Part shown: positions 27,526-44,890 of the stretch, piece after piece
Position numbering within the stretch: position 1 is the first letter of the stretch
Layout: every line of letters starts with the position of its first letter
Origin: Polaromonas sp.
Lineage (GTDB): Bacteria > Pseudomonadota > Gammaproteobacteria > Burkholderiales > Burkholderiaceae_C
DNA length: 64,000 bases
Assembly: GCF_030680935.1 (NCBI RefSeq)
Contig: NZ_JAUXUP010000015.1
Span: 1,948-65,947 of the forward strand
Direction: 5' to 3'
The notes under the pieces: generated by a model
Database searches by the model: none
What the model was told of the DNA's origin: nothing
The model's input: the letters and a program-made list of their open reading frames with translations, nothing else
Program-made: the position numbers and the translations under genes

Positions 27526-27553
27526 TTTTTACAAAGCGGCTGCTTGCTAAAAA
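27526..27553. promoter_or_regulatory. 28-bp palindromic operator upstream of the AtuR-like TetR
   Basis: ...TTTTACAAAGCG-GC-TGCTTGCTAAAAA; near-identical to 44863-44890. Confidence 0.7.
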
Positions 27554-27580
27554 TACCCGGCTTTGTTATGGTTCTGCCTT

Positions 27581-28261
27581 ATGCAGACCCCAACCGCCGA
27601 TACCACCGCAGCGCGCCGGCCACGTGGCCGACCGCGCAAAACGCTGGATGAGCGCGATGACGGCAACCGACGGGTAGAGCTGGTCAACGCGGCGGCACGC
27701 CTTTTTCGCCGCAAGGGATTTGATGCAACAAGCACCCGGGACATCGCCACCGCGGTTGGCATGCACAGCGGCTCGCCGTTTTATCACTTCAAAAGCAAGG
27801 GCGCGCTGCTGTATGCAGTGATGGACGAGGGCATGCGCTCAGCCACCTTGCGTCAGACCGCTGCCCTTGAGCAGGCCTGTGCTGCCTTGCCCGATGCAGC
27901 GGCCCTTTTACGGGTGCTTGTGCGCAATCATTTCGATATTCTGCTGGGCCCTGGCAGCGACTTTATTCCGGTCATGCTGTACGAGTCGCGCTCCATCACC
28001 GCGCGCCAGCGCAGCTCCCTGGCCAAACTGCAAAGCGACTACGAATCGGTCTGGCAGCCGGTGCTGCAGGCGCTGAGCGAACAGGGGCGCCTGGGCTGCC
28101 CGGTCAAACTCGCGCGCCTGCTGATTTTTGGCGCCCTGAACTGGTCCGCCCAGTGGTTTGATGCAAAAAAAGGGGCCTCCCTTGACGAGCTGGCCGACGC
28201 GGCCGTCGCGCTGTTTATCGGCAACAACCCGAAACCCCCTGGAAGGAGAGTCCGACCATGA
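27581..28261 (+). CDS. TetR-family regulator (AtuR-like)
   Basis: AAARLFRRKGFDATSTRDIATAVGMHSGSPFYHFKSK; its stop overlaps the atuB start (ATGA). Confidence 0.9.
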   Translation: MQTPTADTTAARRPRGRPRKTLDERDDGNRRVELVNAAARLFRRKGFDATSTRDIATAVGMHSGSPFYHFKSKGALLYAVMDEGMRSATLRQTAALEQACAALPDAAALLRVLVRNHFDILLGPGSDFIPVMLYESRSITARQRSSLAKLQSDYESVWQPVLQALSEQGRLGCPVKLARLLIFGALNWSAQWFDAKKGASLDELADAAVALFIGNNPKPPGRRVRP

Positions 28262-29142
28262 GTTACCGATCCATTTTCAGTGCCGAACTGTTTGCCGGCA
28301 AGGTGGTGGTCGTGACAGGCGGGGGCTCGGGCATAGGCCGCTGCACGGCGCATGAGCTGGCAGCTCTGGGCGCCCATGTGGTGTTGATCGGGCGCAAGCT
28401 CGAGAAGCTGCACGACGTGGCGGGCGAGATTGTGGCCGCCGGTGGCCGCGCCAGTTTTCACCCCTGTGACATCCGGCAAGAAGCGGCGGTGCAGGCCACG
28501 GTGGCGGCCATCGTGCTGGCGCATGGCCGTATCGACGGCCTGGTCAACAACGCCGGCGGCCAGTACATTGCACCGCTGGAAAGTATCAGCGCCAAAGGCT
28601 GGGAGGCCGTCATCAACACCAACCTGACCGGCGGATTTTTGATGGCGCGTGAGTGTTACCTGCAGGCCATGGCCGGACACGGCGGCAGTATCGTCAACAT
28701 CGTTGCCGACATCTGGGGCTCGATGCCTTCCATGGGACACAGCGGTGCGGCGCGCGCTGGCATGGTCAGTTTCACCGAGACGGCCTCGGCGGAGTGGGCG
28801 CACAGCGGCGTGCGTGTCAATGCGGTGGCGCCGGGGTACATCGCTTCCAGCGGCATGGACCACTACCCGCCTGAAGCTGGCGCCATGTTGCGCGAGATGC
28901 GCCACACCGTGCCGCTGGGCCGCTTTGGCACCGAGGCAGAAACTTCGGCAGCGATTGTGTTTTTGCTGAGCCCGGGCGCGAGTTTTATCAGCGGCACGGT
29001 GTTACGCGTCGATGGCGCGCGGCCGCAGGTGCGCATGGGCTGGCCCATGCGCCTGCCAAATGCCCAGGCACAGCAGCGTGAGGCGGTCAAACCCTTTGAC
29101 GGCTTTCATCTGGCCACGACGCCGAAGGTGTTTCAGCCGTGA
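28258..29142 (+). CDS. atuB: SDR, citronellol/citronellal dehydrogenase-like
   Basis: MSYRSIF..LFAGK...TGGGSGIGRCTAHELAALGAHV, MGHSGAARAG; followed by atuC-F. Confidence 0.82.
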   Translation: MSYRSIFSAELFAGKVVVVTGGGSGIGRCTAHELAALGAHVVLIGRKLEKLHDVAGEIVAAGGRASFHPCDIRQEAAVQATVAAIVLAHGRIDGLVNNAGGQYIAPLESISAKGWEAVINTNLTGGFLMARECYLQAMAGHGGSIVNIVADIWGSMPSMGHSGAARAGMVSFTETASAEWAHSGVRVNAVAPGYIASSGMDHYPPEAGAMLREMRHTVPLGRFGTEAETSAAIVFLLSPGASFISGTVLRVDGARPQVRMGWPMRLPNAQAQQREAVKPFDGFHLATTPKVFQP

Positions 29143-30782
29143 CAGTTTTCCAGTCAGGGTTCAATTCACAGGGCGCGGTGGCCCTTCAGCGCCGCGAAGC
29201 CATGCTGGCGCGTATCGCGGCGCTGCGGGCGTTGGAAGACCGCGCAGCCCAGGCCTCGGCCAAATCGAAGCCGGTGTTCGACAAGCGCGGCCAGTTGTTG
29301 CCGCGCGAGCGCGTTGCCTTGCTGCTCGACCCGGGCACACCCTATTTGCCGATTTGCGCATTGGCCGGTTTCATGCAGGACAACAAGGACCCCGCGCTGT
29401 CAGTGCCCGGCGGGGGCGTCGTTGCGGGTATCGGATTTATCGAAGGCACGCGCTGCATGATCGTTGCCAGTGATTCCGGGATTGAGGCCGGTGCCATCCA
29501 GGCCATGGGGCTGGAGAAAATCCTGCGCGTGCAGGAGATCGCGTTACAGAACAAGTTGCCCTTTGTCCACCTGGTTGAAAGCGCTGGGGCCAACCTGATG
29601 CGTTACCGGGTTGAGGGTTTTGTCCACGGTGGCGCCCTGTTTCGCAACCTCGCGCGCCTGTCGGCTGCGGGCATTCCAGTCATCACCGTACAGCACGGTT
29701 CGGGCACGGCAGGCGGTGCCTACATGCCGGGCCTCAGTGATGTGGTCATCATGGTGCGCAATCGCTCGCGCGCTTTTCTGGCGGGCCCGCCGCTGCTGAT
29801 GGCGGCGACGGGCGAAGTGGCGACCGAGGAAGAGCTGGGTGGCGCCGAGATGCACACCAGCGTCTCGGGCCTGGGCGAGCAACTGGCTGAGGACGACCGG
29901 CAGGCGCTGGGCCTGGCGCGGCAGGTAGTTGGCCGCACATCATGGTCAATTCGGGCTTCAGCCCTTGCCGGACACGCGCAGTCAGCTATTGAATCCATAG
30001 CAAACGAGCCCTTGTATGCGGCGGAAGACTTGCTCGGCTTGATGGCCGCTGACTTGCGCCAGCCGGTGGACATGCAGGAGGTCATGGCCCGGCTGGTTGA
30101 TGGCTCGGATTTCCTGCCCTTCAAGGCCCTGTATGGCGCGGCAACGGTGTGTGTGCAGGCCAGCATGGGCGGCCATGCGGTGGGCATCATCAGCAACAAC
30201 GGCCCGATTGATGTGGCCGGTGCCAACAAGGCCACACACTTCATCCAGATGTTGTGCCAGCTGGGTCACCCCATCATCTATTTGCAGAACACCACGGGTT
30301 ACATGGTTGGCAAGGACAGCGAGCAGGGCGGCATGATCAAACACGGCTCCAAGATGATCCAGGCCGTCACCAACGCCACAGTGCCGCAAATCACCATCCA
30401 GTGCGGTGCCTCGTTTGGCGCGGGTAACTACGGCATGTGTGGCCGGGGTTACGCACCGCGCTTCCTGTTCAGCTGGCCCAGTGCCAAAACTGCTGTGATG
30501 GGCGGCGAGCAGGCGGCGCGCACCATGCAGATCGTGACCGAGGCGGCCATGCTGCGCAAAGGCATTGCGGTGGACGCGGCGCAATCGCAGGCGCAGTTTG
30601 ACAAGATCGTGTCGGTGTTCGAGGCGCAGGCCGACGCCTTCTACACCTCTGGACTGCTGCTGGATGATGGCGTGATTGACCCGCGCGACACCCGGGCCGT
30701 GCTGACGCAATGCCTGGCCATGTGCGCCGACGCAGCAACGCGGCAACTGCGGCCCATGCAGTTTGGCGTAGCCCGGATGTGA
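29139..30782 (+). CDS. atuC: Geranyl-CoA carboxylase beta (carboxyltransferase) subunit
   Basis: RERVALLLDPG, LVESAGANL, GAGNYGMCGR, PRDTR...MQFGVARM. Confidence 0.85.
   Translation: MTVFQSGFNSQGAVALQRREAMLARIAALRALEDRAAQASAKSKPVFDKRGQLLPRERVALLLDPGTPYLPICALAGFMQDNKDPALSVPGGGVVAGIGFIEGTRCMIVASDSGIEAGAIQAMGLEKILRVQEIALQNKLPFVHLVESAGANLMRYRVEGFVHGGALFRNLARLSAAGIPVITVQHGSGTAGGAYMPGLSDVVIMVRNRSRAFLAGPPLLMAATGEVATEEELGGAEMHTSVSGLGEQLAEDDRQALGLARQVVGRTSWSIRASALAGHAQSAIESIANEPLYAAEDLLGLMAADLRQPVDMQEVMARLVDGSDFLPFKALYGAATVCVQASMGGHAVGIISNNGPIDVAGANKATHFIQMLCQLGHPIIYLQNTTGYMVGKDSEQGGMIKHGSKMIQAVTNATVPQITIQCGASFGAGNYGMCGRGYAPRFLFSWPSAKTAVMGGEQAARTMQIVTEAAMLRKGIAVDAAQSQAQFDKIVSVFEAQADAFYTSGLLLDDGVIDPRDTRAVLTQCLAMCADAATRQLRPMQFGVARM
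29961..30001 (+). repeat. 41-bp spaced motif, copy 6 (in frame in the atuC inter-domain linker)
   Basis: GCCC-TTGCCGGACAC-GCG-CAGTC-AGCT-ATTGAATCCA-TAGC; encodes ALAGHAQSAIESIA. Confidence 0.8.
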
Positions 30783-30802
30783 ACCGACTCAGGAGACAAA
30801 AA

Positions 30803-31984
30803 ATGCAATACACCCACGAACACCTTGAAATCCAGAAAACCCTCAAGCGTTTTATTGACGCCGAGATCAACCCGCATGTCGATGAGTGGGAGGCCGCCGA
30901 GATGTTTCCGGCGCATGAGATATTCAAAAAACTGGGTAATCTGGGCCTGCTGGGCCTGACCAAACCCGAGGAATACGGCGGTGCGGGGCTGGACTACTCC
31001 TATGGCGTGGCCATGGCCGAAGCCCTGGGCCACATCGATTGTGGCGGCGTGCCCATGGCGATTGGTGTGCAGACCGACATGTGCACACCGGCGCTGGCAC
31101 GGTTTGGCAGTGAGGAACTCAAACGCGAGTTCCTGGCCCCGGCCATTGCTGGCGATACGGTAGGCTGTATTGGTGTGAGTGAGCCCGGCGCCGGCAGCGA
31201 CGTGGCTTCCATCAAAAGCCATGCGCGCAAGGATGGCGACGACTACATCATCAGCGGCCAGAAGATGTGGATCACCAACAGCCTGCAGGCCGACTGGATG
31301 TGCATGCTGGTCAACACCGGCGACGGGCCGCAGCACAAGAACAAAAGCCTGGTCATGGTGCCCATGCGCGACAAGGGCAAGCTGCGCAAGGGCATTGAGG
31401 TCGGCAAGAAAATCAAAAAAATCGGCATGAACGCCAGCGACACCGGCTTGATTTATTTTGACGAGGTGCGTGTGCCGCAACGCAACCGGATTGGTGCAGA
31501 AGGCTCGGGTTTCATGTACCAGATGATGCAGTTTCAGGAGGAGCGGCTTTGGGCCGCAGCCAGCTGCATACAGTCACTGGGCAATTGCATTGACTGGACG
31601 GTGGCGTGGGCGCACGAGCGCAAGCTGTTTGGCGCCACGCTGGCCGACCAGCAGTGGGTGCAGTTCAAGCTGGCCGAGATGAAAACCGAGGTCGAGGGCC
31701 TGCGAGCCATGACCTACCGCGCCTGCGAGTTGTATGTGCAGGGCCAGGACGTGACCGAACTCGCCTCCATGGCCAAGCTCAAGGCCGGGCGCCTGAACCG
31801 GCTGGTGCCCGATACCTGTTTGCAGTTCTGGGGCGGCATGGGCTACACCTGGGAAAACAAGGTGGCACGCATGTTCCGGGATGGCCGACTCGCATCGATT
31901 GGCGGCGGTGCCGACGAAGTGATGATGGGCATCATCGCCAAGTACATGGGCCTTGCCAAGAGCAGCAAAAAAGCCGCGGCCTGA
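30803..31984 (+). CDS. atuD: Citronellyl-CoA dehydrogenase-like acyl-CoA dehydrogenase
   Basis: MQYTHEH, GCIGVSEPGAGSDVA, GQKMWITN, FQEERL, SIGGGADEVM. Confidence 0.85.
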   Translation: MQYTHEHLEIQKTLKRFIDAEINPHVDEWEAAEMFPAHEIFKKLGNLGLLGLTKPEEYGGAGLDYSYGVAMAEALGHIDCGGVPMAIGVQTDMCTPALARFGSEELKREFLAPAIAGDTVGCIGVSEPGAGSDVASIKSHARKDGDDYIISGQKMWITNSLQADWMCMLVNTGDGPQHKNKSLVMVPMRDKGKLRKGIEVGKKIKKIGMNASDTGLIYFDEVRVPQRNRIGAEGSGFMYQMMQFQEERLWAAASCIQSLGNCIDWTVAWAHERKLFGATLADQQWVQFKLAEMKTEVEGLRAMTYRACELYVQGQDVTELASMAKLKAGRLNRLVPDTCLQFWGGMGYTWENKVARMFRDGRLASIGGGADEVMMGIIAKYMGLAKSSKKAAA

Positions 31985-32784
31985 TGACCCCAGCCATGGC
32001 CCCCAAGTTACAGATCACCCGTTCGGGTGAGGTCGAGCATTGGACGCTGCACGATCCCGCCACACGCAACGCGCTGACCGAAGAGCTTGTGGGCGCCTTG
32101 CAGCTGGCCTGCGAGCGCGTGAGCGCAGACGCCGCGCTGCGTTTTGTGGTGTTGCAGGGCAGTGACGGCGCCTTTTGTGCCGGCGGCAGCCTGGGCGGTT
32201 TTGCCGCCTCTATTGGCCAGGCGCTGCCGGCCGGGCAAACCGATCCGCTGATTGCGATGAATGCGGGCTTTGGCAGCTTGCTGAACAGCCTCAGCGCGCT
32301 GCCACAGATCTTGCTGGTGGCCGTGGACGGGCCAGCCATGGGTGGCGGCCTGGGCCTGGTGTGTTGCGGCGATTTTGTGCTGGCTTCTCCGGCTGCGGTG
32401 TTTGCCACGCCTGAAGTCACCCTGGGCGTGGTGCCCGCACAGATTGCACCCTTTGTGCACCGGCGGCTGGGTGACCGCCACGCGCGTCAGTTGCTGCTTT
32501 CTGGGCAAAAGCTGTCTGCAGAGCAAGCGCTGGGGCTGGGGCTGGTGGACGAAGTTGCAGCTGATTTGCAAGCCGCCGTGGCGCAACGTATCCAGCTGTT
32601 GCGCCGCGCAGCACCTGGCGCGGTGGCCCACACCAAGGCTTTGTTTTGTATGCTCAATCAGGCTGCAGCCCAGGACATACAAGCGCAAGCAGCTCTCAAA
32701 TTCGTAGCGAATTTGCGCAGCCCTGAAGCCGCTGAAGGCTTGGCAGCGTTTGCGCAAAAGCGCAAGCCCGGGTGGGCGGCATGA
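31984..32784 (+). CDS. atuE: Isohexenylglutaconyl-CoA hydratase-like crotonase
   Basis: FCAGGSL, GPAMGGGLGL, PEVTLGVVPAQIAPFV, AFAQKRKPGW; TGATG coupling to atuD. Confidence 0.8.
   Translation: MTPAMAPKLQITRSGEVEHWTLHDPATRNALTEELVGALQLACERVSADAALRFVVLQGSDGAFCAGGSLGGFAASIGQALPAGQTDPLIAMNAGFGSLLNSLSALPQILLVAVDGPAMGGGLGLVCCGDFVLASPAAVFATPEVTLGVVPAQIAPFVHRRLGDRHARQLLLSGQKLSAEQALGLGLVDEVAADLQAAVAQRIQLLRRAAPGAVAHTKALFCMLNQAAAQDIQAQAALKFVANLRSPEAAEGLAAFAQKRKPGWAA
32668..32708 (+). repeat. 41-bp spaced motif, copy 7 (in frame in the atuE C-terminal helix)
   Basis: GCCC-AGGACATACAA-GCG-CAAGC-AGCT-CTCAAATTCG-TAGC; encodes AQDIQAQAALKFVA. Confidence 0.8.
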
Positions 32785-34727
32785 CGGCCACGCCCATTCG
32801 CCGCCTCTTGATCGTCAACCGCGGCGAAATAGCCCGTCGCATCATCCGCACCGCGCAGCACATGGGCATGGCGACGGTGGCGGTGTATTCGGATGCTGAC
32901 GCGCAGGCTCTGCATGTGCATGAAGCCGACGCGGCGGTGGCGCTGGGTGGCAACCAGTCGGCCGACTCCTATTTACGGATCGACAAGCTTCTGGCTGCAG
33001 CGAAGAGGGCGGGTGCCGACGCGGTCCACCCCGGCTACGGCTTTCTGAGTGAAAACGCAGACTTTGCCCAGGCCGTTGTGGAAGCGGGGCTGATCTGGGT
33101 CGGGCCGCCGCCGGCAGCGATTCGTGCGCTGGGTGACAAGGCCAGTGCCAAGGCGCTGGCCGTGCAACGCGGTGTTCCCTGCCTGCCTGGCTACCAGGGG
33201 GCAGACCAGTCCGAAGCGCGATTGATGGCCGAAGCTGAAACACTGGGCTACCCCCTGATGGTCAAGGCCGTGGCAGGCGGGGGCGGGCGCGGCATGCGGC
33301 TGGTGCAGGGGCCCACCCAGCTTCTGCCGGCCCTGCAAAGCGCTCGGTCCGAAGCGTTGTCTGCCTTTGGCAACGGGGGCCTGTTGCTGGAGCGCGCGCT
33401 CTTGAGCCCGCGTCACGTCGAGCTACAGATCTTTGCCGATGCACATGGCCATTGCATCCACCTGGGCGAGCGTGATTGTTCGGTTCAACGGCGTCATCAA
33501 AAGCTGATTGAGGAGTCACCGAGCCCGGCGATGGATGCCGACCTGCGTGAGCGCATGGGAGCCTGCGCGGTCGAGCTTGCGCTGGCAGCAGGTTATGTGG
33601 GCGCTGGCACCGTGGAGTTTTTACTCGACGGCGGCGAGTTCTTTTTGATGGAGATGAACACCCGGCTGCAGGTCGAGCACCCGGTCACCGAAGCGGTGAC
33701 TGGCCTGGACCTGGTCGAGTGGCAGTTGCGCATTGCGCAGGGTGAGGCGCTGCCCCTGCGCCAGGACGAGCTCGTGTTCAGCGGTCACGCCATCGAGGTG
33801 CGTTTGTGTGCCGAAGACGACGATTTTTCCCCGCATGCCGGACAGGTTCTTCATTTTGCTGAGCCATTACATGCACGTTTTGACCATGCGCTGCAAGCCG
33901 GAGTCAAGGTCACACCTTTCTACGACTCGATGTTAGGCAAGCTGATCGTGCATGGCGCCACGCGGGACCAGGCCATCGATGGTTTGATTGCGGCCCTGGC
34001 TGACACCCAGGTGCTGGGCCTGCCGACCAATCGCGCTTTTCTGGCGGCCTGCCTGGCACATCCGGTATTCAGGGCGGGCCAGGCCTTGATTCCTTTCCTG
34101 GCCGAGCACGGCGAAACCATCCGCAAGACGCTTCAGGAGCAGAAGTCCCGGGTGCAGTTGCCGGCCGCGCTGGGCCTGCATTTCGCGGGCAGTACGGGTG
34201 CTGCCCGGGCCTTGCCTTGTCCGTTTGGCAAGATGCTGCGCCTGTTTCAGGGGGAGCACGAGTTGGCAATCACGGTTCGGGAAATGGGTCATGGCCAACT
34301 GGAGGTTCTGTCCGGTTCACAGCAACATTCAGGCGCTTGTACGCGCTCCAGCCCGGGCGCCATGTTTGTCACGGTGGATGGACTCACCCGCGCCGTACAG
34401 GCTTGCCAGGCGGCGGATGGTCAATGGCATGTGCAGGTGGGTGCCACCGACCTCTGGCTGACGGACGCGAGCCTGTTACCGCCAGTGGGCGCGGCCTCCA
34501 GCAGCCAGACGAAGGAGCTGCGGGCGCCGTTTAATGGCAAGGTGATTGCGATCCACGTCGCCGCCGGCCAGACGGTCCGGCGTGGTGACAGCCTGTTGGT
34601 GATTGAATCGATGAAGCTTGAACACGCCTTGTGTGCGACGCGGGATGCCACGGTGACAGAGCTGACCGTGCAAACCGGCCAGCAGATGGCCACTGGGCAG
34701 GTCTTGTTGAGGTTTGACCATGGATAA
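32781..34727 (+). CDS. atuF: Geranyl-CoA carboxylase alpha (biotin carboxylase plus biotinyl domain)
   Basis: NRGEIA, HPGYGFLSEN, GGGGRGMR, EMNTRLQVEHP, biotinylation site ESMKLE. Confidence 0.87.
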   Translation: MTATPIRRLLIVNRGEIARRIIRTAQHMGMATVAVYSDADAQALHVHEADAAVALGGNQSADSYLRIDKLLAAAKRAGADAVHPGYGFLSENADFAQAVVEAGLIWVGPPPAAIRALGDKASAKALAVQRGVPCLPGYQGADQSEARLMAEAETLGYPLMVKAVAGGGGRGMRLVQGPTQLLPALQSARSEALSAFGNGGLLLERALLSPRHVELQIFADAHGHCIHLGERDCSVQRRHQKLIEESPSPAMDADLRERMGACAVELALAAGYVGAGTVEFLLDGGEFFLMEMNTRLQVEHPVTEAVTGLDLVEWQLRIAQGEALPLRQDELVFSGHAIEVRLCAEDDDFSPHAGQVLHFAEPLHARFDHALQAGVKVTPFYDSMLGKLIVHGATRDQAIDGLIAALADTQVLGLPTNRAFLAACLAHPVFRAGQALIPFLAEHGETIRKTLQEQKSRVQLPAALGLHFAGSTGAARALPCPFGKMLRLFQGEHELAITVREMGHGQLEVLSGSQQHSGACTRSSPGAMFVTVDGLTRAVQACQAADGQWHVQVGATDLWLTDASLLPPVGAASSSQTKELRAPFNGKVIAIHVAAGQTVRRGDSLLVIESMKLEHALCATRDATVTELTVQTGQQMATGQVLLRFDHG

Positions 34728-35886
34728 AAACCTTGCCCAACACGCAGCCGATCTCGACGCCTTGGCCGATATTGCGGAGTCGGTCAAACGCTTCGCGCAG
34801 CGCGAGATTGCGCCGCATGTGGGGCCATGGGACGATGCCGGCGAATTTCCCCGGGCCTTGTACCGGCAGGCCGCTGAGCTGGGCCTCCTGGCCCTGGGCT
34901 ACCCGGAAGCGCTCGGTGGCACGCCGGCATCATGGAGATTGCGCAACGCGATGACCGTCGCGCTGTGCCGCTACGGCGGCAGCGGCGGTGTGTTGGCCAG
35001 CCTGTTCTCGCACAACATCGGTCTTCCGCCGGTGTTGCACCATGGCTCGCCCCCATTGCAGCAGGCCGTGATTCCGGCGGTGCTGCGCGGCGAAAAAATT
35101 GCAGCACTGGCCATCACCGAACCGGGCGCCGGCTCTGATGTGGCGGCCCTGCGCACTACCGCACGGCGCGACGGTGCGGACTATGTGCTTGATGGCGAAA
35201 AGGTTTTTATCACCTCGGGCATGCGTGCCGACTACATCACGGTGGCGGTGCGCACCAGCGAAAGCAAAGGGGCGGGTGGCATCTCCATGATTCTGGTTCC
35301 GGGCGACAGCCCGGGTCTGAGTCGCCATGCCTTGCAGAAGATGGGATGGTGGTGCTCAGACACGGCGCATTTGCGCTTTGAGGCCGTGCGGGTGCCTGCA
35401 ACCCATTTGCTTGGTGAGGAGGGTGGCGGCTTCAAGATGATCATGGGGAATTTCAACGGCGAACGCCTGGCGATGTCCGCTGGGGCGCTGGGTTTTGCCC
35501 AGGCCTGTTACGACGAGGCGCTGGACTGGGCACGCCAGCGCAAGACCTTTGGCAGCCTGCTGACCGACAAGCAGGTGATCCGGCACAAGCTGGTGGACAT
35601 GCAGATGCGCATCGCGTCCACCCAGGCGTGGGTGGAGGCGCTGGCGGACCGGGCGGACGCGGGCGAACACGGCGCCGAATGGGTGGCCCAGGTCTGCATG
35701 CTGAAGAACCACGCGACGCAGACCATGCAGTTCTGTGCCGACCAGTCGGTGCAAATCCTGGGCGGTATGGGTTTCATGCGTGGTACAAAAAGCGAGCGCA
35801 TTTACCGCGAGGTCAAGGTCATGATGATAGGCGGCGGCGCCGAGGAAATCATGAAAGACCTGGCTGCACGACAATTGGGCCTATGA
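34720..35886 (+). CDS. Acyl-CoA dehydrogenase
   Basis: LAITEPGAGSDVA, DGEKVFITSG, FNGERL, LGGMGF, MIGGGAEEIM. Confidence 0.92.
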   Translation: MDKNLAQHAADLDALADIAESVKRFAQREIAPHVGPWDDAGEFPRALYRQAAELGLLALGYPEALGGTPASWRLRNAMTVALCRYGGSGGVLASLFSHNIGLPPVLHHGSPPLQQAVIPAVLRGEKIAALAITEPGAGSDVAALRTTARRDGADYVLDGEKVFITSGMRADYITVAVRTSESKGAGGISMILVPGDSPGLSRHALQKMGWWCSDTAHLRFEAVRVPATHLLGEEGGGFKMIMGNFNGERLAMSAGALGFAQACYDEALDWARQRKTFGSLLTDKQVIRHKLVDMQMRIASTQAWVEALADRADAGEHGAEWVAQVCMLKNHATQTMQFCADQSVQILGGMGFMRGTKSERIYREVKVMMIGGGAEEIMKDLAARQLGL

Positions 35887-37580: not shown

Positions 37581-37708
37581 TGATGTCTCCTGTAAAACGA
37601 AGGTACTTGCGCCCCCGCTATTCTTGTCTTTCGTCCGGTCCTGTCAAGCTGGCGTATTCACTTAGGGGCAGGCCCTGTCATCGCCCCTTGCGGACCAGCA
37701 AACACAAT

Positions 37709-37738
37709 GACAAAGGCCGCCCTTGGGCGGCCTTTGTC
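37709..37738 (-). terminator. Hairpin between the two SBP genes
   Basis: gacaaaggccgccc-tt-gggcggcctttgtc, perfect 14-bp stem. Confidence 0.65.
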
Positions 37739-37830
37739 GCATGCGGGACGCAATCAGGTCTGCTCGTGAATCGCTGGCCTGTTCCTTGAACGGTGTCGCA
37801 ACGATCCGTCGGGGCCCTTCGTGCGGTGCA

Positions 37831-39069
37831 TCACTGGTCTTTGAGGAATTCCGACTCGATTTTCCACTTGCCATCCTTCTGCATCACCGACTTGAGGCCG
37901 GCGAAGGCCACGTAGTCGGAGGTGACGGTCCAGCGGCCGTCCTTGATCTGCGACAGGCGCGTGTAGCGGTTGCCCAGGCGCTTGGTGGGTGAGAAGGTCA
38001 TCTCCGGTGTGCCAAACATGTCGCGGTTGTACGTGGTGCTGTCCATGGTCTTGATGAACGAATCGGTGGTGAACGCAGGTCCGGTGCGAAACGCCGTCTT
38101 GAGGAAGCTGTCAACCGCCGCATAGCCGTAGACCGACATGACCGAAGGTTCTTCGTTGAACTTGGTCTTGTATTTATTCGCCCAGAAGCGCACTGGCTGC
38201 TCGGCAGCGTCGAGGTAAGGGTGTTGCGCCGTCATGGTGGCGTACAGGTTGTCCATGAGTTTGCCGCCCAGCCTGGGGATGAGGTCGGTGTACACCGCGC
38301 TGGAGCCGACAAAGGCGGGGCTGAAACCGGTCTTGCGGGACTCGGCAATGGCTCCCACCGTCTCGCGGATGACGGTGCCCAGCACCACCAGGTCGCAGCC
38401 CGCCGCCTTCATTCTGGCTACCTGCGACGAGAAATCAGTCGCGCCGCGCTTGTAGCTGGTTTTTTCCGCCAGTTCCATGTTGATCGTCTTCAGGCCGGCT
38501 TCGCTGCCGCGCAATACTTCCAGCCCGAAGTCATCGTCCTGGTAGAGGATGCAGGGTTTCTTCAGGTTCAGGTCTTTCACCAGGCGCGGCGCGGCGATCC
38601 GCATCTGGTCGTAGTACGTGGCGGCACTGGAAAACTTCAGGCGGTGGAAGGGCTCATACATTTCACGCGCTGCGGTGATGGGCAGGAAATTGATGACGTT
38701 CTTCTCGAACTGCACGGGCATGGCCGCCATGTTCTGCGACGTGCCGAGGTGGCCGACCATGGCAAAGATGCCGTCCCCCTGCGTCACCAGCTTCTGCGCG
38801 CCCAGCACTGCACGCTTGGGGTCGTAGCCGGAGTCTTCAACCAGCAGCTTGAGCTTGCGGCCATGAACGCCGCCCAGTTCGTTGGCCTCGTCGACGCGCA
38901 TTTGCATGCCCATCCGGATCTGCTTGCCATAGGAGGCGAGTGGACCCGACAGGTCCTGGATGGTGCCGATCGCTATCTCGGTTTTGCTCACGCCGGGGGT
39001 GGCGGACTGGGCCCAGGCCGGGGCGCCGCCTGCAGCAAGGACGGCGGCGAGGATGAGTCTGATGTTCAT
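37831..39069 (-). CDS. Liv-type ABC substrate-binding protein 2 (paralog of SBP1)
   Basis: MNIRLILAAVLAAG signal peptide; shares MAAMPVQFEKNVINF.PITAAREMYEPFH and YKRGATDFSSQVA with SBP1. Confidence 0.9.
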   Translation of the reverse strand: MNIRLILAAVLAAGGAPAWAQSATPGVSKTEIAIGTIQDLSGPLASYGKQIRMGMQMRVDEANELGGVHGRKLKLLVEDSGYDPKRAVLGAQKLVTQGDGIFAMVGHLGTSQNMAAMPVQFEKNVINFLPITAAREMYEPFHRLKFSSAATYYDQMRIAAPRLVKDLNLKKPCILYQDDDFGLEVLRGSEAGLKTINMELAEKTSYKRGATDFSSQVARMKAAGCDLVVLGTVIRETVGAIAESRKTGFSPAFVGSSAVYTDLIPRLGGKLMDNLYATMTAQHPYLDAAEQPVRFWANKYKTKFNEEPSVMSVYGYAAVDSFLKTAFRTGPAFTTDSFIKTMDSTTYNRDMFGTPEMTFSPTKRLGNRYTRLSQIKDGRWTVTSDYVAFAGLKSVMQKDGKWKIESEFLKDQ

Positions 39070-39168
39070 GGGTTGTCTCCAGGATTTTGGGTAGGTGCAA
39101 ATGAATTCGCAACGAATTGTTTCCTGCGCGGGCCCTTGCTGCCTTGCACCTTGGCGACACAAAAAATG

Positions 39169-39194
39169 AAAAAGCCGCTTCTGGAAGCGGCTTT
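39169..39194 (-). terminator. Intrinsic terminator after the acyl-CoA ligase
   Basis: aaaaagccgcttc-tg-gaagcggcttt; U-tract on the minus strand. Confidence 0.75.
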
Positions 39195-39234
39195 AGTCAC
39201 GTCGGCGACCAGCGTGATCAGGGTTAGACCTGAG

Positions 39235-41091
39235 TTAGCGATACATCGCTTCGATCGGGGTGGCGTACTTCTTCTCGACCAGCTTGCGTTTGAGTTTCAT
39301 GGTCGGGGTCAGCTCTTCGTCTTCTGCACTGAGCTGGGTTTCCAGCAGAAAAAACTTCTTGATCTGCTCGACCCGCGCAAACTTCTTGTTGACCCGGTCC
39401 ATCTCGCTCTGGATCAGTTCCTGCACCGCCGCTGCACGCGTCAGGCTCAGGTAGTTGCTGAAGGGCACATCGTTGTCCTGCGCGTATTTCTCAACATTCT
39501 CCTGGTCGATCATCACGATGGCCGTCAGGTAAGGGCGCTTGTCACCAATCACCACCGCGTCGGTAATATAAGGCGAGAATTTCAGTTCATTTTCCAGCTC
39601 ACTGGGCGTGACGTTTTTGCCACCTGCCGTGATGATGATGTCTTTCATGCGGTCGGTGATGCGAAAGAATCCTTCCTCGTCCATCAGCCCCACGTCGCCC
39701 GTGTGCAGCCAGCCGTCGGCGTCTATGGTCTCTGCTGTCTTTTCGGGCAGGTTCAGATAGCCCATGAAAACATTGGGGCCGCGCACCAGAATTTCTCCCG
39801 TTGCCGGGTCGAGTTTGACCTCGTTGTAGCCTGCGGCCGGTCCTATGGAGCCCGGCTTGATTCGGCTGGCCGGAACACCGGTGGCCGCACCGCAGGTTTC
39901 CGTCATGCCCCACACTTCCAGCATTGGCACGCCCAGCGCCATGTACCACTTGACGAGTTCTGGCGAAATAGGTGCAGCGCCGGTGACGCAAAAACGAGCA
40001 CGGTGGATACCTATGAGTTTTCTTGCATTGTCCAGCGCGATCCAACGGGCAATCGTGAACTTCAACTTCAGCCAGCCACTGACCGCTTCGCCCGCCATGA
40101 CCTTGTCGGCGATCTCGGTGCCCACGCCTATACCCCAGGCATACGCGCCCTGCTGCAGCGGGCTTGCCTCCTTGAGTGCAATCATCACGCCGGAGTAAAA
40201 CTTTTCCCAAACCCGGGGTACAGCAGTGAAAACGGTGGGCGCAATCTCACGTACGTTTTCCGGGATGGTCTCGGGGTTTTCGACAAAGTTGAGTTTGGCG
40301 CCGGTGTACATTGCAAAATATTCGCCGCCCATGCGCTCGGCAATGTGGCATAGCGGCAGAAAACACATGCGCTCATCATTCTCATCCTGCGCTACCAGTG
40401 TGTTGTAGCCGCGCGCGGTGAACACCAGACCCCGGTGGTTGTGCATCGCGCCTTTGGGCTTGCCCGTGGTGCCCGAGGTGTAGACCAGAATGGCCAGGTC
40501 TTCGGGCCTGCAGGCATTGGCGCGTTTTTCAACGGCATCCGGATGCTGCGCGAGGTAGTTGCGGCCCAGTTCGCGCAACGCGGCCAGGCTGATGACATCG
40601 GCCTCATCCAGATCGCGCAGACCTTCCATGTCAAATACAACAATCTTGCGCAGGATGGCCAATTGACTGCGCACTTCGAGGGCTTTGTCGAGCTGCTCGT
40701 CGTCTTCCACAAACAGGATGGTGGTGCGTGAGTCCTCGCAGAGGTAATGCACTTGCGACGCTGCATCTGTCGGGTAGATGCCATTGGCGACACCACCGCA
40801 ACTGAGCACAGCCAGATCCGCCAGCACCCACTCAATCACGGTGTTGGAGAGGATGGACGCACATTCGCCGGGCGCAAAGCCCAGGCTGATCAGTCCGGCA
40901 GAAATTTCCCGTACCGCTTCACCCGTCTGGTTCCAGCTCCAGCTGCGCCAGATGCCGAGCTTCTTCTGCCGCATCCAGACCTTGTCCTGGCGCTGGTTGA
41001 CGCCGTTCCAGAACAGGGCGGGAATCGTTTCGCCTTCAAGCACTACGCGGGTTTCAGGCTGGATGTGGGAGAGATCCCAAAGATTGCTCAT
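39235..41091 (-). CDS. Long-chain fatty-acid--CoA ligase (FadD15/AtuH-like)
   Basis: YTSGTTGKPKG, FLPLCHIAER, WGMTE, GWLHTGD, DRMKDIIITAGGKNV, LTPTMKLKR. Confidence 0.93.
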   Translation of the reverse strand: MSNLWDLSHIQPETRVVLEGETIPALFWNGVNQRQDKVWMRQKKLGIWRSWSWNQTGEAVREISAGLISLGFAPGECASILSNTVIEWVLADLAVLSCGGVANGIYPTDAASQVHYLCEDSRTTILFVEDDEQLDKALEVRSQLAILRKIVVFDMEGLRDLDEADVISLAALRELGRNYLAQHPDAVEKRANACRPEDLAILVYTSGTTGKPKGAMHNHRGLVFTARGYNTLVAQDENDERMCFLPLCHIAERMGGEYFAMYTGAKLNFVENPETIPENVREIAPTVFTAVPRVWEKFYSGVMIALKEASPLQQGAYAWGIGVGTEIADKVMAGEAVSGWLKLKFTIARWIALDNARKLIGIHRARFCVTGAAPISPELVKWYMALGVPMLEVWGMTETCGAATGVPASRIKPGSIGPAAGYNEVKLDPATGEILVRGPNVFMGYLNLPEKTAETIDADGWLHTGDVGLMDEEGFFRITDRMKDIIITAGGKNVTPSELENELKFSPYITDAVVIGDKRPYLTAIVMIDQENVEKYAQDNDVPFSNYLSLTRAAAVQELIQSEMDRVNKKFARVEQIKKFFLLETQLSAEDEELTPTMKLKRKLVEKKYATPIEAMYR

Positions 41092-41109
41092 GTTGCGGCC
41101 TGTCTTTTC

Positions 41110-41240
41110 TCAATTTGCACGGGGGCGGCCTCTCGCCTCCCGGGAGCTGGTGGATTTGTTGGCAAACAGGTGTGGGCTCGCGAAGCCGTTCGCGCTATGT
41201 CGGTCCCCACGCTGCGGGGCCCCTCGCCAAGTGCGCTCAC
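41110..41240. repeat. Structured intergenic element between livF and the ligase
   Basis: Small hairpins gcgaagccgttcgc and ccccacgctgcgggg; single copy. Confidence 0.35.
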
Positions 41241-41244
41241 GGCT

Positions 41245-42042
41245 TCATCTCCATGTCTTCTTCTTCTTCCAGCGGCGCTCACTGCGCACGCCGTCTTCCT
41301 TCATGCCCAGGTAGAACTCCTTGATGTCTTCCTTTTCCCGCAACCGGGCACAGGTGTCTTCCATCACGATGCGGCCGTTTTCCAGCACGTAGCCGTAGTC
41401 GGACGCGTTCAGGGCCATGTTGGCGTTTTGTTCAACCAGCAAGATGGTGGTGCCGCGCTCGCGGTTGATGCGCACCACGATCTCGAAGATTTCCTTGGTC
41501 AGCTTGGGGCTGAGGCCCAGGCTGGGCTCGTCCAGCAGGATCAGGTCGGGCGAGGCCATCAAGGCGCGCGAGATCGACAACATCTGCTGCTGGCCGCCCG
41601 AGAGCAGGCCCGCATCCTGCAAGGCCCGCTCGCGCAGGATGGGGAAGTAGCCAAACACGGCTTCAATGTCTTTGGCCACGCCATCGCGGTCCTTGCGGGT
41701 GTAGGCGCCCATCAGCAGGTTGTCGCGCACGCTGAGCAGCGGGAACACCTCGCGGCCTTCGGGCACATGGCTCAGGCCCTGCTGCACAATGTAGGCCGGA
41801 TCTTGCGCGGTGATGTTGCCGCCCTTGAACTCGATCGAGCCTTTGCGCGGATCGATGATGCCGGAGATGGTTTTCAAAATGGTGGTTTTGCCCGCGCCGT
41901 TGGAGCCCAGCACGGTGGCGATTTCGCCGCGCCGCACCTGCAGGCTGACGCCGCGTATGGCCTTGATCGGTCCGTAAGAGCTCTCGACGTTGAGCAGCTT
42001 GAGCACGGGCTGGTCGCTGACCGGAGGAGGTACGGCGCTCAT
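41245..42042 (-). CDS. ABC ATP-binding protein, LivF-like
   Basis: GSNGAGKTT, PEGREVF, LSGGQQQM, LLDEPSLGL, VEQN. Confidence 0.93.
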   Translation of the reverse strand: MSAVPPPVSDQPVLKLLNVESSYGPIKAIRGVSLQVRRGEIATVLGSNGAGKTTILKTISGIIDPRKGSIEFKGGNITAQDPAYIVQQGLSHVPEGREVFPLLSVRDNLLMGAYTRKDRDGVAKDIEAVFGYFPILRERALQDAGLLSGGQQQMLSISRALMASPDLILLDEPSLGLSPKLTKEIFEIVVRINRERGTTILLVEQNANMALNASDYGYVLENGRIVMEDTCARLREKEDIKEFYLGMKEDGVRSERRWKKKKTWR

Positions 42043-42890
42043 GAGCGGGCCTCCTGGTTGAGATTGACCGGCTGGTGCTGGCGGCGCAGTGACGACACAT
42101 CATCGACCGAGCCGAGGTAGGCCTCGATCACGCCAGGGTCGTTTTGCACCTCGCGCGGTGTGCCCATGGCGAGGACTTCGCCCTGGTTCATGGCCAGCAC
42201 CCGGTCAGAGACCTTGGAGACCAGCGTCATGTCGTGCTCCACCATCAGCACAGTGATGCCCAGCTCGTTTTTGATGTCCTGGATCCAGAAAGCCATGTCG
42301 TCGGTTTCTTCCACATTCAGGCCCGAGGAGGGCTCGTCTAGCAGCAGCAGCTTCGGTTCAGTGCACAAGGCCCGAGCCAATTCCACCACTTTGCGCACGC
42401 CATAGGGCAGGCCGGCAACATAGGAGTCGCGGTGATGCTGCAAGTCCAGGAAGTCGATCACCTCCTCGGCTTTTTCACGCGCCTGAATCTCAGCCTCACG
42501 GGTTTTCTGGGTGAAGAAGATTTCGCTCCAAAGCCCGGTTTGCCTGTGGGTGTGCCGGCCTATCAGCAGGTTGTGCAGTACGGTGGCGTGTTCAAACAAT
42601 TCGATGTTCTGGAAGGTGCGCGCAATGCCCAGCGCGGCGATCTTGTGCGGTGGCTGATCGGTCAGCTTGGCGCCCAGGTAGTCGATCTCGCCGGTGGTGG
42701 GCGTGTAGATGCGGCTGATCAGGTTGAACACCGTGGTCTTGCCCGCACCGTTGGGGCCGATCAGGGTGAAGACTTCGCCCTGCTTGACATCAAAGCTGAC
42801 GTTGTTCACGGCCAGCACGCCGCCAAAACGGACACTGAGGTTTCTTGCGGACAGCAAGGGCTGCCCGGCTGGTTGTAGTGTGGGGCTCAT
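42039..42890 (-). CDS. ABC ATP-binding protein, LivG-like
   Basis: GPNGAGKTT, ARTFQN, LPYG, LLDEPSSG, EAYLG. Confidence 0.93.
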   Translation of the reverse strand: MSPTLQPAGQPLLSARNLSVRFGGVLAVNNVSFDVKQGEVFTLIGPNGAGKTTVFNLISRIYTPTTGEIDYLGAKLTDQPPHKIAALGIARTFQNIELFEHATVLHNLLIGRHTHRQTGLWSEIFFTQKTREAEIQAREKAEEVIDFLDLQHHRDSYVAGLPYGVRKVVELARALCTEPKLLLLDEPSSGLNVEETDDMAFWIQDIKNELGITVLMVEHDMTLVSKVSDRVLAMNQGEVLAMGTPREVQNDPGVIEAYLGSVDDVSSLRRQHQPVNLNQEARS

Positions 42891-43963
42891 TTCAGACGAT
42901 CTGATTTCTGGAAGGATTTCTGCCGCTTGAACATGCCTTTTCGGTAAAACGGAAAGGTCTGCAGATAGGTACGCACTTTCAGCCAGCGGCCATACAGGCC
43001 CAGGGGTTCAAACAGCACAAAGGCAATCAACACCATGCCATACACCACGCCTTGCAGGCCCGGTGCCTGGCCGATGGCGGCGGGCAGGTAATCCTTGACC
43101 AGCGCAATCGCCTGCGGCATCGAGATCAGGAAGATTGCACCCAGAAAGGCGCCGTGCACCGAACCGACGCCGCCGACCACAATCAGCAGCAGCAGCTCTA
43201 TGGACTGCAGGATGTTGAATTGGTCGGGCGATATGAATTGCAGCTTGTGTGCATACAGGGCGCCGGCGACACCGGCCAGTGCTGCCGACAGCGCAAACGA
43301 AAGGGTTTTGTAGCGCGCCAGGTGAATGCCCATGCTTTGCGCGGAAATTTCCGAATCTCGGATAGCCACAAAGGCGCGGCCCGTCGGTGAACGCAGCAGG
43401 TTCAGGATGGCCAGCGTAGAGACAACCGCCAGTAGCAGGCAGAGAAAATAGAAGGCTTCGCCGCTGTCCAGCTTCCAGCCGAACATGTCGGGCGCCTTGA
43501 TGTGGATGCCCGAGTTGCCGCCGGTGACGCTTTCCCAGCGTGCAAAGACCTCCTCGACGATGAAGCCGAAGGAAAGTGTGGCCATGCCGAGATAGATGCC
43601 TTTGACGCGCAGTGCCGGCAAGCCAACAACCAGACCCACAGCGGCCGACAGGCCGGCCGCGCAGGCCAGCGCAATCGGAAAGGGCACACCGGCATTGGTC
43701 ATGACGGCCTGGGTATAGGCGCCGACGCCAAGAAAGGCGGCATGACCCAGCGAGAACAGTCCGGTGAAGCCCGCCAGCAGCATCAGTCCCAGGCCGGCAA
43801 TCGAATAGATCAGGATGAAGGTCAGCTGGGCCAGCCAGTATTCGGCAAACAGCCAGGGCGCAGCAACCAGCAGCAGCATCAGCGCGCCGTACCAGAAGAC
43901 ATGCCCGCCGTGTTTGGCAAGCTTGATGTCCTGCCCGTAGTCGGTTTTAAATATGAAACGCAT
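42887..43963 (-). CDS. ABC permease, LivM-like
   Basis: GLFSLGHAAF, LRVKGIYLGMATL, TGRAFVAIRDSE. Confidence 0.92.
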   Translation of the reverse strand: MRFIFKTDYGQDIKLAKHGGHVFWYGALMLLLVAAPWLFAEYWLAQLTFILIYSIAGLGLMLLAGFTGLFSLGHAAFLGVGAYTQAVMTNAGVPFPIALACAAGLSAAVGLVVGLPALRVKGIYLGMATLSFGFIVEEVFARWESVTGGNSGIHIKAPDMFGWKLDSGEAFYFLCLLLAVVSTLAILNLLRSPTGRAFVAIRDSEISAQSMGIHLARYKTLSFALSAALAGVAGALYAHKLQFISPDQFNILQSIELLLLIVVGGVGSVHGAFLGAIFLISMPQAIALVKDYLPAAIGQAPGLQGVVYGMVLIAFVLFEPLGLYGRWLKVRTYLQTFPFYRKGMFKRQKSFQKSDRLK

Positions 43964-43969
43964 GAGGGC

Positions 43970-44845
43970 TTAGACTTTCTTGCGGAGTTTTTCGCCGAAC
44001 AAACCGTTGGGCTTGACCATCAGCATGAACAGCACCACCACATAGGCCGCGATGTCCTTGATGCCATCGGGCGCGTAAAAACCGGCCAGCGATTCGACAA
44101 TGCCGATGATCAGGCCGCCGACAATGGCACCGGGCAAGCTGCCGAAGCCGCCAACCACCGCGGCCGGGAAGGCCTTCAAGCCGATGAAACCCATGTTGGC
44201 GTGTACAAAAGTAATGGGCGCGAGCAGCAGTCCAGCGACCGCTGCTACGGCTGCGGCCAGACCCCAGACAAGCCCATTGATGCGTTTGACCGGAATACCC
44301 ATGTAGTAGGCGGCCAGCTGGTTCTGCGATGACGCCTGCATGGCAATGCCCAGCTTGCTGTACTTGAACGCCGCAAACAGCACGAGGCACAATGCAGCGG
44401 TGCTGCCGATGACGGCCATTTTTTCGACATTGAGCACCAGCGCGCCGACGTTCCAGATCTGGTCCTTGTAGGGCACGGGCAGGGTGTGGGTTTCGGTGCC
44501 TATGCCGGGGATCATGGTGATCAGGCCGCGTGCCGTGTAGCCGACACCGATGGTCAGCATCACAATGGAAAACGCGGGTTGACCGAGGATGGGCCGTATC
44601 ACCAGCCGCTCCAGCAGCACGCCGAACAGGGCCATCCCGGCAATCGAGCTGAGGATGGCCAGCCAGTAGGGAAAGCCCAGCATGGTCATGCAGGCCAGTC
44701 CGCCGAAAGCGCCCAGCATCATCAGCTCACCCTGCGCGAAGCTGACCGTCTCGGTGGCCTTGTAGATGAGCACAAAACCCAGCGCGATCAGCCCGTAAAT
44801 ACAGCCCTGCGCTGAGCCGTCGATGATCAATTGCAATATCTGCAC
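43970..44845 (-). CDS. ABC permease, LivH-like
   Basis: GCIYGLIALGFVLIY...SFAQGE, AAVVGGFGSLPG; GTG start at 44845. Confidence 0.9.
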   Translation of the reverse strand: MQILQLIIDGSAQGCIYGLIALGFVLIYKATETVSFAQGELMMLGAFGGLACMTMLGFPYWLAILSSIAGMALFGVLLERLVIRPILGQPAFSIVMLTIGVGYTARGLITMIPGIGTETHTLPVPYKDQIWNVGALVLNVEKMAVIGSTAALCLVLFAAFKYSKLGIAMQASSQNQLAAYYMGIPVKRINGLVWGLAAAVAAVAGLLLAPITFVHANMGFIGLKAFPAAVVGGFGSLPGAIVGGLIIGIVESLAGFYAPDGIKDIAAYVVVLFMLMVKPNGLFGEKLRKKV

Positions 44846-44862
44846 TTTTACTCCACAATAAA

Positions 44863-44890
44863 TTTTTACAAAGCAGGTGCTTGGTAAAAA
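44863..44890. promoter_or_regulatory. 28-bp palindromic operator in the livH/atuA divergent promoter
   Basis: TTTTTACAAAGCA-GG-TGCTTGGTAAAAA (13-bp arms, 1 mismatch); matches 27526-27553. Confidence 0.75.

Follow-up and report, generated by a model that had tools for sequence, protein, structure and literature searches.

INTRODUCTION

The closest described relative of the system reported here is the AtuR of Pseudomonas (P. aeruginosa PAO1 and Pseudomonas sp. OST1909), a repressor that in OST1909 shifts atuA/atuR promoter DNA in an EMSA (electrophoretic mobility-shift assay) and whose site was predicted by the authors to be a 24-bp imperfect inverted repeat, TACAAACCAAGCGCTTGCTTGGTA (bioRxiv 10.1101/2025.09.24.678253). 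Fatty and naphthenic acid compounds block the binding of this AtuR to DNA in EMSA, an atuA reporter is induced by citronellic and decanoic acids, and AtuR responds to acyclic naphthenic acids, not to citronellol or geraniol; a second AtuR site lies at a separate acyl-CoA dehydrogenase (ACAD) gene (10.1101/2025.09.24.678253). Here we describe two near-identical DNA dyads in a stretch of 64,000 nucleotides from Polaromonas sp. (contig NZ_JAUXUP010000015.1, positions 1,948 to 65,947 of the forward strand; hereafter the window), one in front of a gene for an AtuR-like TetR and the other between livH, of a LivHMGF-type transporter operon, and atuA. We consider it probable from the sequence evidence that both dyads are operators of this TetR (27581–28261), which would shut off its own operon, the livH operon and probably atuA until it is released by an acid or CoA ester.

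Two further regulators bear on the comparison, both of them TetR proteins predicted in the RegPrecise database. FadP is predicted to regulate genes for ACAD, thiolase and FadB in Comamonadaceae, with acdH, acdA and acdB as core targets. LiuQ, a regulator of Betaproteobacteria, is predicted to control liuB/liuA/liuC/liuD-type genes in two Comamonadaceae genomes, with 'atuB' in one of them (Kazakov 2009; Leyn 2016, PMC5343134).

RESULTS AND DISCUSSION

Two matching dyads enclose an atu-type gene cluster

Site 1, TTTTTACAAAGCGGCTGCTTGCTAAAAATA, occupies positions 27526–27555 and is separated by 25 nt from the ATG of the TetR gene (27581). As predicted operator 1 it forms a dyad of 28–30 bp at the atuR promoter, which can be written as TTTTTACAAAGC-GGCT-GCTTGCTAAAAATA. 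Site 2, TTTTTACAAAGCAGGTGCTTGGTAAAAATA, at 44863–44892, is predicted operator 2 (TTTTTACAAAGC-AGGT-GCTTGGTAAAAATA; neither dyad is assigned to a strand) and lies within the 126-bp divergent region of livH and atuA; 17 nt separate it from the start codon of livH (GTG at 44845, minus strand) and 79 nt from that of atuA (ATG at 44972). The two sites are identical at 27 of 30 positions; of the three mismatches, two fall within the central spacer and the third in the right arm. Of the 14 pairs about the centre, 11 are complementary in site 1 and 12 in site 2. Both palindromes were found where the original prediction had placed them.

A pattern search of the window that allowed up to three mismatches returned sites 1 and 2 only, the expected number in 100 dinucleotide shuffles being 0.00, and no weaker copy was detected in the window by a position-weight-matrix scan (matrix from relatives) and a mismatch scan. 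The G+C content of the window is ~62%, so a 30-bp A/T-rich dyad is conspicuous against its surroundings.

The two loci had been called distant; instead, the sites bracket one contiguous 20-kb cluster, whose gene content, as given by profile searches, falls into three operons. Operon 1, on the plus strand, encodes the TetR, a short-chain dehydrogenase (SDR), a carboxyltransferase (CT), an ACAD, an enoyl-CoA hydratase (ECH), a biotin carboxylase (BC) and a second ACAD (ending at 35886), and converges near 36.1 kb with operon 2, which on the minus strand comprises livH, livM, livG, livF, the gene for an AMP-forming acyl-CoA ligase and that for a HAAT-type binding protein (to 37831). Operon 3, on the plus strand and divergent from livH, encodes AtuA, an AtuA ferredoxin-like open reading frame (ORF) and an ECH. 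The gene names of the original prediction hold, in that the TetR, a geranyl-CoA carboxylase (GCC)-type CT, AtuA, LivHMGF, the ligase and the binding proteins were all identified by profile or score.

The TetR and its operator compared with Pseudomonas AtuR

The window TetR (226 aa, plus strand) is 38% identical over 183 aa (E = 9e-40) to the canonical AtuR of Pseudomonas type, and both proteins consist of TetR_N plus TetR_C_24. The TetRs encoded at canonical operators are 30–39% identical to the window TetR, and the recognition helices are similar (VGMHSGSPFYHFKSK in the window TetR and VGIQSGSIFHHFKSK in canonical AtuR). The best match in the PDB was 4MO7/4MXM ('transcriptional regulator I2', PfiT, Pseudomonas fluorescens) with 120 bits, all others having 60 bits or fewer. 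PfiT is itself ~90% identical to an AtuR encoded beside a canonical operator (L116:7873–8484). By that identity, the solved 'superantigen' structure of the Crohn's-disease-associated I2/PfiT is that of an AtuR repressor. PfiT can serve as a structural model for the family, as a Pseudomonas protein with identity to the window TetR at the 38% level; the PDB matches showed no complex with DNA. Judged by sequence, the window TetR is homologous to a bona fide AtuR, a statement that stops short of strict orthology.

The exact 24-mer TACAAACCAAGCGCTTGCTTGGTA occurs in metagenome contigs at at least 120 loci (L115–L234) of 37–66% G+C, and in essentially all of those listed it lies between a TetR gene and atuA-atuA′-atuB-atuC-atuD-atuE. 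The canonical operator is extraordinarily conserved, with a strictness unusual for an operator across diverse Gammaproteobacteria. With its flanks it reads TTTACAAAC-CAAGCGCTTG-CTTGGTA, and some canonical loci have a second, partial copy, ACCAAGCAAGCGCT, ~20 nt upstream.

The Comamonadaceae dyad shares with this operator the arm sequences TTTACAAA and GCTTGGTA (heptamer A[C/G][C/A]AAGC). In contrast, the arms of the canonical 24-bp repeat stand 4 bp further apart, and the window centre is shorter and variable. The targets are homologous in both systems (atuA, atuB, GCC-type atuC, atuD, atuE and atuF), and in both the operator overlaps promoter elements. The layouts differ. Canonical clusters have one divergent region between atuR and atuA, whereas atuR of the window is co-directional with atuB–F and apparently leaderless; atuA stands apart, at a distance of 17 kb, with an operator copy of its own and is paired with the ABC transporter–ligase operon, which canonical clusters do not have. 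The window therefore has the TetR homology and the atuABCDEF targets of an AtuR-type system, whose control we infer from operator placement and gene content, but neither the canonical operator sequence nor the divergent atuR–atuA layout. On these grounds the system is homologous to AtuR and would work like it, and it differs from canonical AtuR systems by the variant operator spacing, the split layout and the added transporter–ligase operon.

Conservation of the dyad at orthologous loci

We scanned one genome per species for the exact pattern TTTNCAAAGCNNNTGCTTGNTAAA, for which ~4 chance matches are expected under uniform base composition, and obtained 112 loci. Fourteen of them came from unrelated taxa and had no related genes in their vicinity, and the remaining 98 belonged to Comamonadaceae or unclassified Burkholderiales and fell into exactly three contexts. 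In context A (59 loci) the motif lies upstream of an operon of the TetR-SDR-CT-ACAD-ECH-BC type, in Polaromonas, Acidovorax, Rhodoferax, Hydrogenophaga, Curvibacter, Ottowia and Melaminivora, with TetR identities down to 56%. Context B is the region between livH and atuA (five loci), and context C (34 loci) lies between the gene for a 387-aa ACAD and a divergent fadA-fadB operon, a location paralleled by the OST1909 site at an ACAD gene; both systems have an extra operator at a separate ACAD locus. The context C loci (e.g. L044:5215–7708), found in Rhodoferax, Curvibacter, Limnohabitans and related metagenome-assembled genomes (MAGs), also show a conserved TATACT directly after the operator.

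Several genomes contain contexts A and C on different contigs, and several others contain A and B on one contig, 16–35 kb apart. A single site in Limnohabitans serves fadA on one side and an ACAD-TetR-SDR-carboxylase operon on the other. The TetR operon of Rhodoferax has no carboxylase genes, indicating that regulon content shifts between genera. Two loci picked by TetR protein similarity alone (L001 and L002) both had the dyad at the same place. The number of copies per genome was one or two, and 888 kb of related loci contained no sites with four or five mismatches; such an all-or-none motif suits a small dedicated regulon. The part that varies across sites is the central 3–4 bp. Phylogenetic footprinting, which had been proposed as a check, came out in favour of the dyad: in many species the orthologous position has kept the motif, whereas its flanks have diverged.

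Two contigs assigned to an 'Asaia bogorensis' MAG (L039) and a 'Candidatus Kapabacteria' MAG (L091) carry a Polaromonas-type TetR–atu operon that is 95% identical to the window at the amino acid level, and are probably mis-binned.

Site 1 is built into a predicted, conserved promoter

We compared 58 unique orthologous promoters of context A. The right arm of operator 1 contains a predicted −35 element, TTGCTA (27544–27549, plus strand), which is present in 55 of the 58, and is followed in all 58 by a spacer of 17 nt to a predicted −10. In the window the latter is of the TGn-extended type, TG-T-TATGGT (27564–27572, plus strand), with the TG at 27564–27565 and TATGGT at 27567–27572. Such −10 elements (TATCGT, TATGGT and similar) have A at the second and T at the sixth position in every promoter, and the extended-position TG occurs in 52. 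The TetR ATG comes 6–8 nt past the −10 in 56 of the 58, and the TetR gene of the window has no Shine–Dalgarno sequence, which together argue for a leaderless atuR mRNA; the arrangement also argues for repression by occlusion of the −35.

The livH–atuA divergent region

The arrangement of livH to the ligase and binding-protein genes divergent from atuA is kept in Polaromonas, Hydrogenophaga and Piscinibacter. In an alignment of seven loci of the window's Polaromonas sub-clade, the dyad of site 2 stands out as an invariant island, variable at the central three bases only, whereas the flank on the atuA side has diverged; a second conserved block, TGATCATGAGCTG(C/G)ATTCAATG, adjoins atuA. Site 2 lies just upstream of the livH Shine–Dalgarno sequence GGAG (44851–44854), and since it ends 17 nt from the livH GTG, any livH transcript would have to start within or beyond the operator. 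TATTGT and TGTAAAAAT were considered as a livH −10, and neither was settled on, as either leaves almost no leader. A −35/−10 pair for atuA starting from TTGGTA in site 2 was rejected because GGAAGG sits at the −10 position.

The livH–atuA loci were also sampled independently of the motif, by AtuA protein similarity (n = 10). The site was present in four of them, belonging to Polaromonas MFD06263, Polaromonas SM01, Hydrogenophaga A37 and a Hydrogenophaga MAG. The site of MFD06263, TTTTTACAAAGCATGTGCTTTGTAAAAA, has perfectly symmetric arms, and that of SM01, TTTTCACAAAGCATTTGCTTGGTGAAAA (TTTTCAC...GTGAAAA), shows a symmetric change in both arms, as would be expected if a dimer reads both of them. 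Polaromonas sp. SM01, a cultivable relative, carries both site 1 and site 2. In Hydrogenophaga A37 and the Hydrogenophaga MAG the site adjoins atuA, its right arm being TTGGTA or TTGGCA followed by 17 nt and TATGCT; the operator there is predicted to provide the −35 of an atuA promoter that has TATGCT as its −10. Hydrogenophaga luteola (L024), a motif-scan match outside the ten, has TTGCAA-16-TATGCT-6-ATG, which suggests a leaderless atuA. The livH–atuA operator was found only in the Polaromonas sub-clade of the window and some Hydrogenophaga.

Other features of this region were noted as well. Five of the six loci without the site share another conserved element, TTATAGCTGTC...GTCGCTAGGGGTTG. 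The element takes the form TTATAGCTGTC-N~10-GTCTG(T/G)CGCTAGGGGTTG in seven loci, five without the dyad (L236–L238, L241 and L242) and two with both (L235 and L244), and may represent the livH promoter or a site for some other regulator. In the window, atuA has no obvious Shine–Dalgarno sequence and is preceded by a five-codon mini-ORF, ATGAGCTGGATTCAATGA (44957–44974), whose stop overlaps the atuA ATG (ATGA). All seven aligned loci of the Polaromonas clade have an in-frame equivalent, one with a TTG start. The mini-ORF is better conserved in its nucleotides than in its residues, and so may act as an element of the promoter or leader instead of encoding a peptide.

A model for the regulon and the evidence that bears on it

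The model that we infer for binding, transcription start sites, effector and transported substrate is as follows. The TetR, as one or two dimers, would recognize TTTTTAC(A/C)AAGC-N4-GCTT(G/T)(G/C)TAAAAA. At site 1 the bound repressor would exclude RNA polymerase from the −35, resulting in repression of its own gene and of the operon, which the site 1 promoter would otherwise transcribe as a leaderless atuR-atuB-atuC-atuD-atuE-atuF-ACAD message. At site 2 it would block livHMGF–ligase–binding protein expression by promoter occlusion or as a roadblock, and would probably affect the divergent atuA-atuA′-ECH operon, 79 nt away, as well. By analogy with Pseudomonas AtuR and its response to citronellic and decanoic acids, the repressor would come off the DNA in the presence of the acid substrate or its CoA ester, and uptake, CoA activation and the carboxylase-dependent bypass of β-methyl branches would be turned on together. 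Direct observation covers the sequences with their placement and conservation, and the homology to AtuR of both protein and operator arms. The original prediction that the two loci form one regulon gains support from this comparison, because the motif is conserved at orthologous positions and integrated into a promoter, and because homology to the AtuR system extends to the protein as well as to the operator arms.

Several points weigh against this model or qualify it. The operator arms of canonical AtuR are spaced differently by 4 bp, so DNA recognition is not simply transferable from AtuR to the window TetR. Site 2 was missing in six of the ten protein-selected loci, namely Polaromonas LjRoot131 and YR568 (both with a context A site), three Hydrogenophaga or other Comamonadaceae, and Piscinibacter. 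Since these include two Polaromonas that have site 1, the link to the transporter and atuA, although real in the lineage of the window as far as sequences tell, is evolutionarily labile. No convincing atuA promoter overlapping site 2 was found in this genome, and control of atuA here is less certain than control of livH. Most comparative loci were found through the motif itself, a sample that does not give the share of orthologues without it. A generic consensus σ70 and terminator scanner reported no promoter at either region, so the promoter reading is drawn wholly from conservation. The public runs that match the window are groundwater or bioreactor DNA metagenomes, with no RNA runs among them, and root metatranscriptome contigs on the Polaromonas JS666 locus were too sparse for mapping a transcription start. 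Finally, the effector may be the free acid rather than an acyl-CoA.

Carboxylase type, transporter and the nature of the substrate

The identity of the substrate is the point at which an alternative has the best standing. The atuC-like CT (29139–30782, plus strand) scored 576 bits against the GCC β subunit of P. aeruginosa (5IKL_B) and 461 bits against the β subunit of methylcrotonyl-CoA carboxylase (MCC). The two enzymes are told apart by Gly162 in the P. aeruginosa GCC versus Phe191 in MCC and by a three-residue insertion in MCC (Jurado 2015, PMC4673880). In the 5IKL_B alignment the window protein has glycine at the position of Gly162, lacks the three-residue MCC insertion and is two residues shorter than MCC there. 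By these sequence features the carboxylase is of the geranyl-CoA rather than the methylcrotonyl-CoA type.

The transporter has the features of a HAAT (LivHMGF-type) importer, with two BPD_transp_2 permeases, two ABC ATPases (one with a BCA_ABC_TP_C tail) and a Peripla_BP_6 protein. The genes livF, livG, livM and livH, recognized by profile search, span 41245–44845 on the minus strand and are followed by those for the FadD11-like, AMP-binding acyl-CoA ligase (39235–41091, minus strand, profile search) and the HAAT-family substrate-binding protein, the last gene of the operon (37831–39162, minus strand; Peripla_BP_6, start codon uncertain). The binding protein matches LivJ weakly (92 bits), and PDB searches with the binding protein and the ligase gave no clue to a ligand. 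The presence of an acyl-CoA ligase in the operon and the shared operator point to a carboxylic acid as the transported substrate, and we tentatively assign the transporter to branched or terpenoid acids. That the livHMGF–ligase–binding protein operon is a dedicated module for uptake and activation of citronellate- or geranate-like acids, which acquired its operator copy in one Polaromonas lineage, is an attractive possibility that we put at somewhat less than an even chance.

The regulon could also be real and yet serve other medium-chain or methyl-branched acids, such as branched fatty or naphthenic-type acids, the 'atu' names then being labels of homology. Rhodoferax and Curvibacter have the same TetR and operator on carboxylase-free TetR-SDR-ACAD operons plus fadAB, AtuR of OST1909 answers to decanoic and acyclic naphthenic acids as well as to citronellic acid and not to the terpene alcohols citronellol and geraniol, RegPrecise files the likely equivalent regulator LiuQ under leucine degradation, and the window comes from a Polaromonas MAG of groundwater or bioreactor metagenomes. 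However, the CT is of GCC type both by score and by the Gly/Phe selectivity residue, and AtuA and the AtuA ferredoxin-like protein are present. We regard this as a serious contender, if somewhat less likely than not.

Reach of site 2

Site 2 might instead act on one side, repressing the livH operon while atuA is transcribed from an independent promoter out of the repressor's reach. The dyad abuts the ribosome-binding site of livH and is 79 nt from the atuA ATG, the sequence 17 nt after TTGGTA is GGAAGG and no −10, and a separate conserved block lies beside atuA. Against this, atuA is the prime target of canonical AtuR, the operator supplies the −35 of atuA in Hydrogenophaga, and the intergenic region is just 126 bp long, such that a bound pair of dimers could affect both promoters. 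One-sided control is, in our view, unlikely, though it deserves to be kept in mind beside the two-sided control that we prefer.

Other TetR regulators

The window encodes a second TetR (15023–15778, TetR_C_13) with a palindrome of its own, TAGAACGGTCGTTCTT (GAACG-N2-CGTTC), at 14990–15005. It is followed by genes for a 598-aa ACAD (15800–17596), a FadB-like protein (18243–20657), a thioesterase-like DUF4442 protein, a thiolase (21352–22551), a hydrolase, a DsbA-like protein and an ECH (24592–25359). This cluster looks like the arrangement predicted for FadP in Burkholderiales. The shared dyad was not found anywhere in the β-oxidation cluster at 15023–25359, and the 15023 TetR is unrelated to the AtuR-like TetR (25% identity over 77 aa).

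These observations bear on whether another regulator, for example a global fatty-acid-degradation TetR such as FadP, binds the two dyads and the adjacent TetR is incidental. FadP is likewise a TetR-family repressor, its targets resemble context C, its core targets in RegPrecise include acdH, acdA and acdB, and one third of the conserved sites lie between an ACAD gene and fadA-fadB, that is, at genes of classic β-oxidation. Yet it is the separate 15023 TetR, with its different C-terminal domain and palindrome, that heads a β-oxidation cluster in the window and so fills the role of FadP, whereas the AtuR-like TetR does not; because that cluster lacks the shared dyad, a global regulator is unlikely to act through it. 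In addition, the motif occurs once or twice per genome with no weak copies in the 888 kb of related loci, unlike a regulon with ~8 sites per genome; it lies at the promoter of the AtuR-like TetR itself in 59 species, and in Limnohabitans the TetR gene is inside the operon behind the site; and its arms match the AtuR operator TACAAACCAAGCGCTTGCTTGGTA. We consider binding by a global regulator very improbable.

LiuQ is a different matter. Its gene content fits TetR-SDR-CT-ACAD-ECH-BC, and Polaromonas sp. JS666, one of the genomes in RegPrecise, carries a counterpart of site 1 (L104) and none of site 2; the carboxylase here differs in being of GCC type, not MCC type. By gene content, LiuQ is probably the same regulator, and site 1 may already be catalogued in RegPrecise. 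Neither the liv transporter nor atuA is among the listed RegPrecise members of LiuQ and FadP.

Least probable of all is that the dyads represent no more than a small repeat or a promoter module common to both loci, made up of an A/T-rich UP-like tract and a −35, to which no repressor binds: the right arm does hold a −35 and the flanks are A/T tracts, but dyad symmetry is also kept on the side without a promoter role at the TetR locus, the SM01 site has a symmetric double substitution and that of MFD06263 has become more symmetric, to the point of perfect arms, the dyad occurs in both orientations with respect to its neighbouring genes with only its central 3–4 bp varying, and it is not dispersed like a REP element. 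An origin from a REP or mobile element was rejected, as the dyad has just two copies, each of them close to a promoter across many genera.

Further genes of the cluster and its surroundings

Beyond the TetR and CT genes, operon 1 contains, all on the plus strand, the genes for an atuB-like SDR (28258–29142; 54–64% identical to the SDR of canonical atu clusters), an atuD-like ACAD (30803–31984; ~60% identical to the ACAD of canonical clusters, start codon inferred), an atuE-like ECH (31996–32784; profile search, start codon inferred) and an atuF-like BC with a biotin carrier domain (32772–34727; profile search), and ends with that for the second ACAD (34714–35886), a homologue of which, 59–68% identical, is encoded beside AtuR in canonical clusters of low G+C content. 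Operon 3 consists of atuA (44972–46366, plus strand, PF07287), the gene for the AtuA ferredoxin-like domain protein, a split C-terminal part of AtuA (46363–46752, plus strand, PF23544), and that for the downstream ECH (46734–47549, plus strand; profile search, conserved synteny).

A further binding-protein gene (36423–37580) lies beyond the livH operon. Between the two binding-protein genes there are a terminator-like hairpin with a 13-bp stem (37709–37738, minus strand) and a promoter-like TTGACA-16-AAGAAT (37647–37620), and the further gene may, to judge from its surroundings, be transcribed apart from the operator-controlled operon. The region beyond the atuA operon (47612–51009) encodes a 4HBT thioesterase, an exporter-type ABC_membrane plus ABC_tran protein (48092–49924) and a LysR regulator (49981–51009), an order common to Polaromonas and Hydrogenophaga (L235–L240).

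Implications

No general principle is altered by these results, which a specialist would find sensible rather than surprising. They define a Comamonadaceae version of the AtuR operator together with a predicted promoter logic, in which the −35 lies inside the operator and the repressor mRNA is leaderless, and they may be of practical use in genome annotation, in biosensor design (AtuR is already in use for sensing naphthenic acids) and in understanding the turnover of terpenoid or branched acids by groundwater Polaromonas. For a 'branched-chain amino acid' ABC system and a ligase whose role homology cannot assign, they offer a testable function, namely to take up branched or terpenoid acids and to activate them with CoA, and the transporter, if this assignment is true, would be the first assigned to the Atu pathway. 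AtuR-type regulons appear to be rewired between close relatives; if so, the presence of site 2 in SM01 and MFD06263 and its absence from LjRoot131 and YR568 would constitute a natural experiment in regulon rewiring.

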